Origin: a virus
Taxonomy: Duplodnaviria; Caudoviricetes
Strand: one strand, 5' to 3'
DNA length: 64,000 bases
Virus record (IMG/VR): IMGVR_UViG_3300046804_003398
Under the pieces are notes generated by a model. That model was given only the letters and a program-made list of their open reading frames with translations. It was not told the DNA's origin and did no database searches. Position 1 is the first letter of the stretch. Every line of letters begins with the position of its first letter. Below are positions 19,143 through 34,486 of this stretch, piece by piece. The position numbers and the translations under genes are program-made.

Positions 19143-19214
19143 TGGTAGCTGGTATGGGTGCTGCCCCCACTTAACAAACCTTATGAGGATTCGTCGTTTG
19201 CTGAAACCCCAGCC
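19143..19214 (-). tRNA. tRNA-Met/Ile2 (CAT), non-canonical elbow
   Basis: Loop CUCAUAA, T-loop GGCAGCA, CCA end. Confidence 0.7.
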
Positions 19215-19221
19215 GTTAAAA

Positions 19222-19320
19222 TTACTTCTTCTTACGTTTTTTTACACTACAACTTTTAACATTGCAGTAACCCTTCTTGGTTTTACGTAAGTGTTGTCGT
19301 CTCATGCCTTTAGTTGCCAT
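19222..19320 (-). CDS. Lys/Arg-rich micro-protein (32 aa)
   Basis: Manual translation MATKGMRRQHLRKTKKGYCNVKSCSVKKRKKK. Confidence 0.4.
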   Translation of the reverse strand: MATKGMRRQHLRKTKKGYCNVKSCSVKKRKKK

Positions 19321-19333
19321 AATATTTAAAAAG

Positions 19334-19407
19334 TGGAGCGGGTAGTGAGAATCGAACTCACTCATAGGCTTTGGAAGAGCTTCAGGCTACCGTTACATCA
19401 TACCCGC
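19334..19407 (-). tRNA. tRNA-Gly (TCC)
   Basis: Canonical cloverleaf, loop CUUCCAA, CCA. Confidence 0.9.
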
Positions 19408-19420
19408 ACTTTAATAAATA

Positions 19421-19648
19421 TTATTCGGTCAACACAAGAACTTCATATTCATAATTGTGATTTTCCTTAAACATATCACAATACTTCTTTGCTGACTTCT
19501 CGGTCAAAAAAACCTTATGAATTGATCGTTCACTGTCACCATTACGGACAACATATACCGTAATTGGCAAGATCTTTTCTTCCTTGATAATTTCACTTGC
19601 AACCAAAATGTTGCCAATCAAAATCAACGATATCAATAGTTTCTTCAT
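19421..19648 (-). CDS. Hypothetical protein with signal peptide-like N-terminus
   Basis: MKKLLISLILIG... Confidence 0.6.
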   Translation of the reverse strand: MKKLLISLILIGNILVASEIIKEEKILPITVYVVRNGDSERSIHKVFLTEKSAKKYCDMFKENHNYEYEVLVLTE

Positions 19649-19692
19649 GTCTAAAGTCTACCACAGATTGTTGTTGTGTCAACTGTTAAAAT

Positions 19693-19816
19693 TGGATGAC
19701 CGTGACTTGCGAATATACGAGGATTTCACTGGGCGTTCCAAATGTCTATCTCGTCAACTTCAGTCTCCTATACCCTCCTATGGGTATCGTGCTATAATTC
19801 TATACACCAACAATCA
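19693..19816 (-). ncRNA. tRNA-like RNA with elongated T-arm region
   Basis: 7-bp UGAUUGU/ACGGUCA stem plus U-CCA end, D-arm GUGU/GCAC, AUACCC/GGGUAU hairpin, long rod in place of the T-arm. Confidence 0.5.
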
Positions 19817-19917
19817 AATTTAAATTCAACCCTATCCTATCTGGAACAGATTCGTCCGGGTCAGACATACAGGGGTGTATCGTGTCCCTCACGCCATGGC
19901 TAAACCACCACAAGATC

Positions 19918-20327
19918 TTTGACACAGCCGTAGCCGCTGTTCTGTTTTATCCCTACATTTATCTCAGACACCTTGGCGGTTTTATGGGCATATTTAACCC
20001 ACAGATTATTAGCCGAACACAGCCGTTGGTTATTGTTTCGGACCTAGCCAAGTTCAAACCTCTACCATTGTCTGGTTGTCCGTTAAAGACAACTGCTCCA
20101 ACCTATCCCTTCAAACGTGCAGCACTACACTCGGGTTATTTAGGATTACTGCTAATATGTGGTGTTTTCGAATTAAGGTTAACCGGACTGCTCCTTGCTT
20201 CCACGGAATTGCAGTCGTTTAATCATTGTGGGCAATATGAAGTTAACTTACATTCTCCCAATCATCTGCTGTGCAGCATCGAACTTCCTCTAGGATATTA
20301 TCCCAGCGTAGGATCGCTTGTGTCAAA
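19918..20327 (-). ncRNA. rnpB: RNase P RNA
   Basis: P1 UUUGACACA/UGUGUCAAA; P2 UCCUAC/GUAGGG; P3 hairpin; CR-I GAGGAAGUUCG; L15-like AAUGGUAG; CR-IV AGAUAAAUG; CR-V AAACAGAACAGCGGCUA; P4 AGUUCG/CGGCU with bulged U. Confidence 0.85.
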
Positions 20328-20330
20328 AAA

Positions 20331-20405
20331 TGGCAGGGGATACCGGTTACGCTCCGATTCTCTCAGATTCAAAGTCTGATTTGCTACTATTACAATCAAT
20401 CCCCA
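20331..20405 (-). tRNA. tRNA-Gln (TTG), non-canonical elbow
   Basis: Loop CUUUGAA; D-loop AAUAGUA; T-loop AGCGUAA. Confidence 0.85.
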
Positions 20406-20414
20406 GTTATAAAA

Positions 20415-20490
20415 TGGTCGGGATGGAGAATTTTGCAATCTCAACCTCCTGTCTCCAAAACAGGCCGTCTACTTTTGACATTACATCCCG
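20415..20490 (-). tRNA. tRNA-Pro (TGG), non-canonical elbow
   Basis: Loop UUUGGAG; D-loop AAAAGUA; T-loop UGCAAAA. Confidence 0.8.
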
Positions 20491-20497
20491 ATAAAAT

Positions 20498-20571
20498 TGG
20501 CAGGGGATAAGGGAATCGAACCCCTACAAGAAGATTCAAAGTCTTCCGCACTACCATTATGCAAATCCCCA
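20498..20571 (-). tRNA. tRNA-Gln (TTG)
   Basis: Canonical GG/UUC elbow, loop CUUUGAA. Confidence 0.9.
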
Positions 20572-20581
20572 GTTCTGAAAT

Positions 20582-20655
20582 TGGAGCGGGTGGAGGGAAT
20601 CGAACCCTCTCATCGTCCTTGGCAAGGATGTAGGCTACCGTTACATCACACCCGC
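20582..20655 (-). tRNA. tRNA-Gly (GCC)
   Basis: Canonical cloverleaf, CCA. Confidence 0.9.
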
Positions 20656-20664
20656 GTTATAAAT

Positions 20665-20740
20665 TGGTGGACCAGACAGGATTCGAACCTGCCACATTCT
20701 GCTTGCAAAGCAGACGCTCTACCAAATGAGCTACTGGCCC
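20665..20740 (-). tRNA. tRNA-Ala (TGC)
   Basis: Canonical, G3.U70. Confidence 0.92.
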
Positions 20741-20746
20741 GTAAAG

Positions 20747-32613: not shown

Positions 32614-32689
32614 AGTATAAAATATCTGAGGACTTCACGGCGGGTTAATTAGACCCAACGACAATATTGTCTTCCGTTCCACAATTTAA

Positions 32690-32757
32690 ACTCTTTTCAC
32701 CAGAGGGAATCGAACCCCAGAGTTGTGTCTATCTCAGTTTGTGCTTTGACCACTGAT
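32690..32757 (-). pseudogene. Degenerate tRNA remnant
   Basis: T-arm-like GGGGUUCGAUUCCCU, no intact acceptor stem or CCA. Confidence 0.35.
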
Positions 32758-32764
32758 CAAAAAT

Positions 32765-32839
32765 TGGCCCGGCAGGTTGGTAACGCTCCAACATCTCGTC
32801 CTCTTCAGGGACACGCTAATCTATTTCAGCTACTACCGG
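32765..32839 (-). tRNA. tRNA-Phe (GAA), non-canonical elbow
   Basis: Loop CUGAAGA; T-loop AGCGUUA; discriminator G. Confidence 0.82.
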
Positions 32840-32850
32840 ATTTTGAAAAC

Positions 32851-32957
32851 TTGATTACATAGTTGGAATTGAACCAACGGCCCGTGCTTATTCACACTTT
32901 TACGGTGTCATTTACCATCATAGTGAGCACTGATCTACCTCTGAACTATATGTAATC
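32851..32957 (-). ncRNA. tRNA-like RNA with 37-nt expanded anticodon loop, no encoded CCA
   Basis: Acceptor UUACAUA/UAUGUAA, D-loop AGAGGUA, anticodon stem GUGCU/AGCAC, T-arm GUUGG-UUCAAUU-CCAAC. Confidence 0.65.
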
Positions 32958-32962
32958 AAAAA

Positions 32963-33394
32963 CTATTCACCAGACATTTTCAGTCTGACACAACGTATAA
33001 CTTTTCTGGCTCTCTTTGAAGCCTTTTGTGTCATAAATGCTCTTCCGCTTCCTTTTTTATACGGCGGTGTTTTTCCTTTTGACGTATATTGAGCAGAAGT
33101 TACGTCCAAAATCTTACCGTCTTCGTTTTGTAACCACCAGTGGGAAATTCCTCGGTCATCTTCTCCTTGATGTGGTTTGAATGTTCCCTTCAACTTTGTA
33201 GACTTTAATAAATGATACAAAGCTTCAGTGGCAACATAACAATGCCCAAACATTGGATTAGACTCATTTTCCTTACGATACTTTGGTTCCAATAACTCTG
33301 GTTCAAGACAACTTTTAATTTTTGATATTAAAGTTGACACGGTTGGACTTTTAACTTCCAACAAAATATCTACAAGACTTATGGATCTAATCAT
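32963..33394 (-). CDS. Papain/transglutaminase-like (YunG-like) protein
   Basis: NPMFGHCYVATEAL...HWWLQ...ILDVTSAQY gives a Cys-His-Asp triad pattern. Confidence 0.55.
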   Translation of the reverse strand: MIRSISLVDILLEVKSPTVSTLISKIKSCLEPELLEPKYRKENESNPMFGHCYVATEALYHLLKSTKLKGTFKPHQGEDDRGISHWWLQNEDGKILDVTSAQYTSKGKTPPYKKGSGRAFMTQKASKRARKVIRCVRLKMSGE

Positions 33395-33575
33395 ATTAAT
33401 AAATATGACAGACTAAAACAATTCGATGTTGGTTTACGGGAATGTTTACAGAACATTATTACGACCTACAACATGATATCTTGCGTAGATCAACCCACTC
33501 ACTCTCCACGACATTGATACTTGCAATTATCAACTCTTTCTTCAGCATCGTGAGTCTGCTGACACCGAATAAAAA

Positions 33576-33663
33576 TGGTGGGGTATGTAGGTAATGCTCC
33601 TACCCAGGCCGTTAAGCCTTCTGATTTACAGTCAGAGCTACGTCTTTAGTAGTATAATACCCC
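33576..33663 (-). tRNA. tRNA-Tyr (GTA), non-canonical elbow
   Basis: Loop CUGUAAA, variable arm, T-loop AGCAUUA. Confidence 0.87.
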
Positions 33664-33668
33664 AAAAA

Positions 33669-33758
33669 TGGTGGTGAGTGGAGGAGTTGAACCACTTGCC
33701 GAGCCACCCTATTAAATAACGGCAACTGTTTTACAGACAGCCATAGGGAACACTCACC
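33669..33758 (-). tRNA. tRNA-Tyr-like (GTA) lacking a D-arm
   Basis: GGUGAGU/ACUCACC-A-CCA acceptor; only 8-9 nt before the anticodon arm; enlarged variable region. Confidence 0.65.
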
Positions 33759-33877
33759 AAAAAAATTAGTAGGGACTTTCATCTAAACTTACATCAGGAT
33801 TTCACATTGGTCAAGCAATTTCGAACTTGCTTATCTTTCTGACTTGTTTTTTATCAATTACTAGTCCCACTTGAAAA

Positions 33878-33952
33878 TGGCTCCAGAGGAAGGGCTCGAA
33901 CCTTCAACATTTCGGTTAACAGCCGAACGCTCTACCATTGAGCTACTCTGGA
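33878..33952 (-). tRNA. tRNA-Asn (GTT)
   Basis: Canonical. Confidence 0.92.
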
Positions 33953-34157
33953 ATTAAAAATTAAATTTGAAAGCGTGGATTCTCTTACCACTACTTAGGG
34001 TGCGTTGCACTTCCGTTCTGACTTCAACAGACTTTCTTTCAAAGATGTTTACTGGATTTCAACGAACGTTCCATAACTATAGCCGAAGCACTCGTCAGTG
34101 TCAACTACAATTGTGTCTATCAGTGTCCCATACGCTTACTACATCGTATCAAGTCGA

Positions 34158-34238
34158 TTATCATCGTGGATTCGAACCACCTACCCTGTCGGGGTAGCAC
34201 CAAGCTAATAATAACTGCTTAACGCCTTCATCCGTATG
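34158..34238 (-). pseudogene. Degenerate tRNA-like element
   Basis: T-arm GUGG-UUCGAAU-CCAC plus hairpin CUACCC/GGGUAG; no clear anticodon arm or CCA. Confidence 0.35.
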
Positions 34239-34246
34239 TTAAAAAT

Positions 34247-34320
34247 TGGCTCCCAAGGAAGGACTCGCACCTCCACAAGAACGTTAACAGCGTTCCGTGC
34301 TACTTTGACACTACTCGGGA
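34247..34320 (-). tRNA. tRNA-Asn (GTT), non-canonical elbow
   Basis: T-loop UGCGAGU; D-loop CAAAGUA. Confidence 0.85.
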
Positions 34321-34327
34321 ATTAAAT

Positions 34328-34403
34328 TGGCGGTCTATACGGGACTCGCACCCGTTACTGGAATTAGACAGATTCCTATGATAAACTCATTCAACAATAG
34401 ACC
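34328..34403 (-). tRNA. tRNA-Asp (GTC), non-canonical elbow
   Basis: T-loop UGCGAGU; D-loop AAUGAGUUUA. Confidence 0.83.
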
Positions 34404-34410
34404 AGAAAAT

Positions 34411-34486
34411 TGGAGCGACATGTGGGTAACGCACCCATCTACTCAAGTTTGGAAGACTCGCGTGTATCTATAAACACCTATGTCGC
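34411..34486 (-). tRNA. tRNA-Gly (TCC), non-canonical elbow
   Basis: T-loop UGCGUUA; D-loop UUAUAGA. Confidence 0.83.

Follow-up and report, generated by a model that had tools for sequence, protein, structure and literature searches.

The window analysed here is a stretch of 64,000 nucleotides (nt) of viral DNA (Duplodnaviria; Caudoviricetes; IMG/VR record IMGVR_UViG_3300046804_003398). It is part of a freshwater jumbo phage, and its sequence is found in freshwater and river metagenomes. Among its phage-type genes are those for a PhoH-like protein, a tail-fibre chaperone domain, GP88 and an RNA ligase. About 43 genes for transfer RNAs (tRNAs) or tRNA-like molecules lie within 19143-35000, all on the minus strand, and a transfer-messenger RNA (tmRNA) gene lies at 18736-19120. 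Our subject is a subset of 18 tRNAs in which the bases that form the elbow are exchanged. The contacts G18-Psi55 (Psi, pseudouridine) and T54-A58 are textbook 'invariant' features of tRNA. We call a tRNA rewired if it has A18/G55 in place of G18/U55, and canonical if it has a GG D-loop with U55.

The tRNAs were called with ARAGORN and Rfam, then with a CCA-anchored cloverleaf parser plus manual parsing, by which every gene of the set of about 43 encodes its CCA. ARAGORN and Rfam recover just 30-36 or so of these genes, and many of the odd ones are missed or score low. The invariant elbow is built into tRNA gene finders, which overlook or under-score many rewired genes here.

Exactly 18 tRNAs of the array, between 19143 and 34486, have G55 and C56 in the T-loop. 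Their T-loops read TGCGTTA, TGCGAGT (twice), AGCATTA (twice), AGCGTTA (four times), AGCGTAA (three times), GGCAGTA, GGCAGCA (twice), TGCAAGT (twice), TGCAAAT and TGCAAAA. The D-loop carries AG in 18/18 of them and GG in 0/18, and GG is present in all of the approximately 24 tRNAs with a UUC loop bar Glu-CTC. Set against G55 and U55, the AG/GG counts in the window are 18/0 and 0/24 (Fisher exact p = 2.8e-12). G19-C56 is retained in 18/18, with a G after the A of each D-loop and a C at T-loop position 3. The 54/58 pair is replaced by A54/U58 in nine (the AGC loops), by G54/G58 in three (the GGC loops) and by U54/U58 in one (Gly-TCC), so that 13/18 have something other than U:A. A preliminary description of this DNA had given the same count and list of loops, and had stated that all G55 tRNAs have AG and no GG while nearly all UUC-loop tRNAs keep GG, that C56 and the D-loop G are kept, that the AGC subset swaps to A54-U58, and that Gln-TTG, Pro-TGG, Gly-TCC, Lys-CTT and Asn-GTT each occur in both forms. 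The cloverleaf parse agrees on each point, with Glu-CTC as the sole exception to the rule for UUC loops. The same description had asked for realignment of the D-loop, and the Rfam RF00005 alignment puts A on consensus G18, G on G19 and G on U55, with posteriors of 7-9. This placement means that AG occupies positions 18-19 and excludes misalignment. Most rewired D-loops are also 7 nt long (AATAGTA against canonical AATGGTA), which makes the register unambiguous.

The rest of the cloverleaf is ordinary. Between 17 and 21 of 21 stem pairs form in all 18 tRNAs, the values of 17-18 belonging to Met and to a first-pass parse of Lys-CTT. Each has a 7-bp acceptor, 5-bp anticodon and T stems, a 7-nt anticodon loop, U33 and C56, and the Leu, Ser and Tyr members keep their long arm.

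All 18 genes are on the minus strand and are given here with D-loop and T-loop in brackets. The rewired tRNA-Gly(TCC) at 34411..34486 (TTATAGAT/TGCGTTA) keeps G1:C72, C2:G71, G3:C70 and U73 and is covered by RNA contigs. Beside it are tRNA-Asp(GTC) at 34328..34403 (ATGAGTTTA/TGCGAGT; G73 kept) and tRNA-Asn(GTT) at 34247..34320 (CAAAGTA/TGCGAGT), the latter with a canonical counterpart at 33878-33952. The rewired tRNA-Tyr(GTA), with its long variable arm, is at 33576..33663 (ACTAAAGAC/AGCATTA) and tRNA-Phe(GAA) at 32765..32839 (AAATAGAT/AGCGTTA). Two lysine tRNAs are rewired: Lys-CTT at 32330..32408 (CAATAGAC/GGCAGTA, G54/G58), which has an 8-nt variable loop and AA at 8-9 and whose canonical counterpart is at 32246-32323, and Lys-TTT at 31530..31608 (CAATAGAC/AGCATTA; Rfam 29.8 bits). 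A second tRNA-Asp(GTC) at 31451..31524 (AATAGTA/AGCGTAA), tRNA-Ile(GAT) at 31370..31443 (AATAGCA/AGCGTAA), tRNA-Val(GAC) at 31201..31274 (AAAAGTA/AGCGTTA), tRNA-Thr(GGT) at 30136..30209 (AAAAGCA/AGCGTTA), tRNA-Gln(CTG) at 29978..30052 (AATAGAA/TGCAAGT) and tRNA-Cys(GCA) at 29896..29970 (AGTAGTT/TGCAAAT; U73 and G15:G48 kept) follow. The remaining members are tRNA-Leu(TAG) at 21208..21291 (AATAGAAG/TGCAAGT) and tRNA-Ser(GCT) at 20747..20840 (ATAGTTAGTTAG/GGCAGCA, G54/G58), both with long arms; a tRNA-Pro(TGG)-like gene at 20415..20490 (AAAAGTA/TGCAAAA; C1:G72 and A73 kept), with a canonical Pro-TGG at 21379-21456; tRNA-Gln(TTG) at 20331..20405 (AATAGTA/AGCGTAA), whose acceptor stem and discriminator are the same as those of the canonical Gln-TTG at 20498-20571; and a tRNA-Met(CAT)-like gene at 19143..19214 (T-loop GGCAGCA).

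A few other genes of the array depart from the standard in ways of their own. The tRNA-Thr(CGT) at 30055..30129, minus strand, is canonical at G18/U55 and has C54 (CTCGATT), a T-loop without UUC; it is conserved in two related phages, G001 and G009. The tRNA-Glu(CTC) at 34582-34658, minus strand, has a UUC T-loop and a D-loop without GG (ATGTGTGTTA), the same in relatives G001 and G007; its elbow is a deviation of another sort than A18/G55. At 33670-33757, minus strand, is a Tyr-GTA-like RNA with a long stem, CCCTAT/ATAGGG, in place of the normal D-arm. The tRNA-like gene at 30294-30479, minus strand, has an acceptor that pairs (GACGGAG/CTCTGTC), a T-loop reading TTTGATT and a CCA; about 115 nt are inserted after its D-arm and may be an intron or an inserted element. 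Another irregular tRNA-like gene at 32854-32955, minus strand (Rfam 43 bits), has a 9-bp acceptor, a canonical T-arm and an insertion and is without CCA.

The same array occurs in four other IMG/VR records: G001 (92-100% identity), G007, G008 and G009. Many rewired tRNAs are identical or almost so across the four, in phages that differ by 4-8% elsewhere. Identical copies exist of Asn-GTT in G001 and G009, Phe-GAA in G007 and G009, the second Asp-GTC in G001, and Ile-GAT in G001 and G007; Ser-GCT is conserved in G001 and G007. Where sequences differ, the stems of rewired orthologues show 41 double compensatory changes, 8 G-U changes and 2 broken pairs, and in the loops 262 positions are the same against 8 that differ. 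This conservation is at least as clean as that of canonical tRNAs. The G007 orthologue of Lys-CTT, for example, has a compensated T-stem pair, and the G001 orthologue of Cys-GCA has two compensated anticodon-stem pairs.

The relatives do not always hold the same form. His, canonical in the window, is rewired in each of the four relatives. The rewired form is also found for Glu-TTC in G007-G009 and for Trp in G008 and G009, whereas Ile-GAT is canonical in G008 and G009 and Asp is canonical in G009. Leu-TAG is rewired in the window and in G001, and the orthologue in G007 and G008 reads AATTGGCAG/TTCAAGT on the same D-stem and anticodon arm; at the level of sequence this is a direct 18:55 switch. 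Within the window, Asp, Phe, Ile, Cys, Met and the only regular Tyr exist exclusively in the rewired form. A canonical anticodon is duplicated by 5/18 rewired tRNAs, 13/18 bring anticodons that have no canonical form, and the two forms jointly cover all 20 amino acids. The preliminary description had spoken of a parallel set, and here we depart from it: with few duplicates and with isotypes swapped between relatives, the two designs are interchangeable parts of one set. The array itself may be fluid. In 19214-21405, metatranscriptome contigs join tRNA ends over distances of 114-1358 nt (20076 to 20408; 19214 to 20573), and G001 is without about 270 nt of this region, including the rewired Pro and Gln genes. 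Together these joints and the gap in G001 suggest that strains gain and lose tRNA genes in the manner of cassettes.

The association of positions 18 and 55 extends well beyond this phage. A scan of IMG/VR with one rewired T-arm motif found at least 119 loci; the tRNAs on 119 viral contigs, parsed in full, amount to 956 unique sequences. Among 7-nt D-loops in this viral sample, AG accompanies G55 in 76/76 and GG accompanies U55 in 187/188; among D-loops of all lengths, the counts are 144 and 702. With the fished motif removed, G55 has AG in 83 and GG in 3, and U55 has GG in 702 and AG in 3. The nominal G55 tRNAs with GG also hold AG in register, and true A18/U55 intermediates number 3/705. The possibility, raised beforehand, that G55 homologues might have G18 as often as A18 found no support in the 83 against 3 outside the fished motif. 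In a blind mutual-information scan of all column pairs, 54:58 and 18:55 rank 17th-20th, among the Watson-Crick stem pairs and above the stem pairs 10:25 and 13:22.

Near-isogenic pairs that differ in form make the same point. The Val-TAC tRNAs of L070 (AAAAGTA/AGCGTTA) and L009 (AAAGGTA/ATCGTTA) are 96% identical outside the loops, and further pairs are found for Glu-TTC (96%), Ile-GAT (92%), Asp, Lys-CTT (the window's rewired tRNA has a canonical near-twin in L005) and Leu-TAG. Judged from these sequences, the 18:55 switch has arisen more than once in near-identical backgrounds. The preliminary description had favoured selection over decay, and the mutual-information scan, the near-isogenic pairs and the compensatory evolution of the stems bear this out.

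Rewired tRNAs of the viral sample span all 20 isotypes, and those of the window at least 15. They are scarcest for Ala, Pro, Leu, Arg and Ser. The D-loop or elbow is known to be read by the Arg, Leu and Ala synthetases. Their build is compact, with a 7-nt D-loop in 57% (29% in canonical tRNAs) and a 4-nt variable loop in 73% (46%), and position 15:48 is often A:A or A:C. The T-loop variants fall into NGC, AUC and CUC classes, each of which breaks the UUC motif. The loop ATCGTTA, with A54-U58, occurs together with canonical G18/U55 in 39 cases of the viral sample and also in T5-like and other cultured phages, such as KM672662.1 at 17676-17750 (L316) and PV190393.1 at 42664-42738 (L317). Thus 54:58 can be swapped without 18:55, and the UUC motif is lost in such loops too. 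When the array was compared with cultured phages by blastn, canonical tRNAs alone were matched, and a search of cultured phages with the rewired Ile alone gave no match. The rewired Phe did lead to homologous tRNA-Phe genes in cultured phages, with AGATAGAT/TGCGTTA or AGATGGAT/ATCGTTA. The tRNA-Phe at 77322-77393 of Streptomyces phage TunaTartare, NC_070784.1, is rewired, with AGATAGAT/TGCGTTA; the homologues in Acinetobacter phage YMC13/03/R2096 and Aeromonas phage AhP_Mru1 have A54-U58 yet keep G18/U55.

Features by which synthetases recognise their tRNAs are in place. Discriminators are kept in rewired tRNAs for Cys (U73, 29/29), Asp (G73, 18/18), Asn (G73, 19/19) and His (C73, 13/15), Pro has C1:G72 in 8/9 and Cys has G15:G48 in 16/29. 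The discriminator spectrum as a whole is that of canonical phage tRNAs. The array is also present in RNA, matched almost perfectly by contigs of four river metatranscriptomes. In these libraries the GOLLD RNA of the window (26471-26938, minus strand, Rfam 206 bits; region 26403-27389) has a depth of 1300-2900x against 2-12x for structural genes, its contigs lying >100-fold above them, and tmRNA reaches about 100-146x in two of the four runs. Depths so far above those of structural genes show that the libraries are true RNA and that the phage was active. The GOLLD region embeds a canonical tRNA-like element at 26797-26872 with a 6-nt anticodon loop.

Cellular genomes have the design as well. 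A pattern scan of bacterial genomes with 14 fixed bases, for which chance matches are expected in the thousands, led to real G55 tRNAs at 42/120 loci. Whole arrays of rewired tRNAs are found in Verrucomicrobia metagenome-assembled genomes (MAGs), and a rewired tRNA-Cys is conserved in at least 11 Saccharibacteria genomes (L129, L139, L154, L170, L180 and six more). This tRNA-Cys (AGAAGTT/AGCGTTA, with A54-U58, G15:G48 and U73) adjoins tRNA-Leu(TAA). For one of these genomes, where the full list of 38 Rfam tRNA hits was recovered, the sole Cys tRNA is the rewired one; a pattern for canonical tRNA-Cys had no match in five Saccharibacteria MAGs. As the rewired tRNA is the only tRNA-Cys found, the A18/G55 design appears to serve ordinary translation, at least as far as these MAGs represent the organisms.

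Taken together, these results are best explained if the 18 are functional elongator tRNAs of the phage that stand on an alternative elbow, an explanation that we consider probable. That they are working tRNAs in which the altered elbow is compensated is, taken by itself, highly probable. A18-G55 would take the place of the G18-Psi55 contact, A18 being the base inserted into the T-loop, and in subsets the pair that closes the T-loop, U54-A58, would become A54-U58, G54-G58 or C54-A58. Because the outer platform, G19-C56, is retained, the tRNA remains usable by RNase P, the ribosome and the synthetases. The G18 of canonical tRNA inserts itself between 57 and 58 and bonds Psi55, which a review of the tRNA elbow treats as universal (PMC4810234).

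A model for the new contact exists in the T-loops of riboswitches. Position 2 of these loops is G (UGNRA 88.7%, CGNRA 10.9%) and the intercalator is adenosine in 99.96%; a ribosomal RNA (rRNA) T-loop, GGAAG, is also known (bioRxiv 10.1101/2022.12.26.521914). By this analogy, we infer that the geometry of A18-G55 is that of riboswitch-type T-loops. All 18 window loops are NGC(A/G)N, matching YGNRA in their second base (G) and fourth (a purine); its pairing of a first-position pyrimidine with a fifth-position A is found in 5/18 (UGCRA), and the rest are AGCRU, GGCAG and UGCGU. The phage tRNAs resemble the T-loop modules of flavin mononucleotide (FMN) and cobalamin riboswitches in the G at position 2, in the putative adenosine intercalator and in the presence of UGNRA and CGNRA variants, and the GGCAG class resembles the rRNA loop GGAAG. 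Unlike the riboswitch modules, the phage module would sit in a tRNA, with the D-loop as its receptor and a Watson-Crick G19-C56 at position 3. The AGCGU class, with A54-U58, lies outside the consensus types of that paper and appears to be a further T-loop variant.

Several points weigh against this reading. Three members of the window set are irregular: Met has an aberrant D-arm with a 4-nt loop, CAGC, which makes its 18/19 assignment uncertain; Pro and Gln-TTG each have a connector of 3 nt, and Pro has T53.T61 as well. Frequencies in the viral sample are biased, since it was fished by one rewired T-loop motif, and it is the association test on non-fished loops that is unbiased. Metatranscriptome contigs show that a sequence is present and cannot resolve mature ends, levels or aminoacylation. 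Conversion of the window set is also partial, as about 24 UUC-loop tRNAs stay and Ala, Arg, Glu, His and Trp are canonical-only.

It is very improbable that the rewired tRNAs are decaying pseudogenes or an artefact of misaligned loops. One might suspect this from their low Rfam scores (29.8-58 bits) and from the failure of ARAGORN and Rfam to find several of them. Such a view is hard to reconcile with a perfect 18:55 association in which Rfam itself places A on G18, with stems that are compensated and loops that are near-invariant in orthologues (41 compensatory changes against 2 broken pairs), or with identical copies in otherwise diverged phages and presence in RNA. Pseudogenes are expected to decay, and uncompensated stem decay is not seen among the orthologues, which contradicts this reading. 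The tRNAs could instead act outside translation, as decoys or sponges for tRNA-binding factors or as donors of amino acids off the ribosome. The non-proteogenic tRNA-Gly of S. aureus, also without U55 and G18-G19 and hypomodified (PMC13443448), provides a precedent, and the three irregular members and the five that duplicate a canonical anticodon would fit such a role. We nevertheless find it improbable. Unlike the staphylococcal tRNAs, the phage tRNAs retain G19-C56, their anticodon loops are standard with 7 nt and U33, and isotype identity elements are preserved. Thirteen of the 18 bring anticodons without a canonical form to a set that needs both forms to cover 20 amino acids, and five bacterial genomes yielded no tRNA-Cys but a rewired one.

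The serious rival is that A18/G55 is a neutral second fitness peak, a lineage marker reached by double mutation and spread with a mobile pool of compact tRNAs without any specific benefit. The compact build that rewired tRNAs share across isotypes, along with their unusual 15:48, suggests common descent. The two forms swap freely among related phages, the same design serves as an ordinary cellular tRNA-Cys in Saccharibacteria, and A18/U55 intermediates do occur, if rarely (3/705). Against this, the design clusters in phage contigs and accessory arrays, with whole arrays converted, and the AUC, CUC and NGC classes all converge on the loss of U54-U55, which looks directional. The near-universal G18/U55 of cellular tRNAs also argues that the two peaks are not equivalent in cells. 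On balance we think a neutral origin rather unlikely, and return to functional tRNAs on an alternative elbow and to what might have favoured them.

There are two possible ways in which the phage could benefit, both put forward in the preliminary description: independence from modification and escape from host factors that read the elbow. U55 is the substrate of TruB, U54 that of TrmA/TrmFO and G18 that of TrmH. Having lost U55, often U54, and G18, rewired tRNAs would have no need of these enzymes. They would also, being without the UUC motif, escape nucleases that cut in the T-loop, for which CRISPR-associated Schlafen (Cash) is a published candidate. Most tRNAs are substrates of Cash nucleases, which cleave the T-loop at the UUC motif, 5′ of U55, and a single mutation of U54 or U55 abolishes cleavage; whether phage tRNAs are targeted was left open by the authors (PMC13462974). 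The main selective driver may be insensitivity to factors that read the U54-U55 loop, which we offer tentatively, and of the two benefits nuclease evasion is somewhat likelier than independence from modification. The RNA ligase at 44598-45617, minus strand (PF09414 plus the OB domain of PHA02142; phrog_968, 1e-86), is of the tRNA-repair type. It is a circumstantial sign of pressure from tRNA cleavage and suggests that the phage repairs tRNAs after they are cut. A GmrSD_N-like (DUF262) protein at 42692-43957 adjoins the ligase.

Evasion of T-loop nucleases meets difficulties of its own. A nuclease of this kind would still cripple the set through the approximately 24 UUC-loop tRNAs that are kept. 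The Schlafen domain PF04326 was absent from five Verrucomicrobia MAGs with rewired arrays, which leaves no support for a reading in which rewired tRNAs confer self-immunity. Nuclease evasion also leaves the rewired tRNA-Cys of Saccharibacteria unexplained.

It is conceivable, if doubtful, that the variants amount to a general phage counter-defence, in which NGC, AUC or CUC loops combined with A18 would give phages and mobile tRNA islands a pool of tRNAs that survives host nucleases of the Cash or Schlafen type and is free of TruB and TrmA, perhaps together with an RNase P-like RNA. The candidate for the latter is a non-coding stretch at 19918-20327, minus strand, whose RNase P-like motifs (GAGGAAGUUCG, AGAUAAAUG, ACAGAACAGCGGCUA) stand in the correct order; it has a possible P4 helix with a bulged U and an RNA depth of 60-170x for its bin. 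Rfam at E up to 10 on 19640-20420 gave no RNase P, only a weak match to sroE (E = 3.3). The z-score of the minimum free energy is -0.49, and its pairwise alignment to E. coli rnpB by MAFFT cannot be relied on. If real, this RNA could matter for the processing of rewired tRNAs.

Small open reading frames (ORFs), all on the minus strand, are found among the tRNAs. The ORF at 30568-31275 has a weak match to S-adenosylmethionine methyltransferases and shares an RNA contig (X15, 30079-31364) with flanking tRNAs. The product of 31621-32169 is a sulfotransferase-like P-loop protein, with near-zero RNA coverage (one low-depth contig edge, X17), and that of 32963-33394 is YunG-like. Further along, in 48000-64000, GC content climbs from about 0.37-0.41 to 0.45-0.49 and most ORFs are without a family match; a lone canonical tRNA-Arg(TCT) lies there at 60839-60913, minus strand.

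If the explanation given here is right, there is a second way to build a workable tRNA elbow, taken from the wider repertoire of T-loops. The near-isogenic natural pairs provide a means to test the contributions of Psi55, 5-methyluridine at position 54 (m5U54), TruB and TrmA. A testable arms-race link is suggested with the recently reported nucleases whose cleavage site is U54-U55 of the T-loop. Practical uses may lie in the design of orthogonal or nuclease-resistant tRNAs and in the annotation of phage tRNA sets. No published description of A18/G55 or G18/U55 covariation in tRNA was found in a full-text search that did not reach most subscription journals.

Compared with known systems, the rewired tRNAs share with canonical ones the cloverleaf, a 7-nt T-loop closed by G53-C61, G19-C56, identity elements and an encoded CCA, and differ in being without sites for Psi55, m5U54 and 2′-O-methylguanosine at position 18 (Gm18). 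The array resembles L-arrays (PMC8421152), which are long, horizontally transferred runs of tRNA genes, about 40 at most, that add to the tRNAs of the host. Like them, it is dense, lies on mobile DNA and has small ORFs and endonuclease-like genes between its tRNAs; elbow bases are not a subject of the L-array paper (PMC8421152). Phage tRNAs are known to dodge host anticodon nucleases by changes in the anticodon loop (PMC10264068), and T5 tRNAs neutralise PARIS or Retron-Eco7 (PMC11464382, PMC12673091). In those cases, as here, a phage tRNA departs from the host sequence at a site that a defence nuclease reads. The rewired change differs in that it sits in the elbow and needs compensation at a second site, and its link to Cash is a hypothesis. 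The nearest precedent among tRNAs is the staphylococcal non-proteogenic tRNA-Gly (NP1-3), which is without U55 and G18, hypomodified and aminoacylated (PMC13443448, PMC7826273). There G18-G19 is wholly lost, a loss where the phage tRNAs show a compensated swap. The staphylococcal tRNAs have weak EF-Tu determinants, carry Gly only and serve peptidoglycan, whereas the phage tRNAs keep G19-C56 and extend over at least 15 isotypes.

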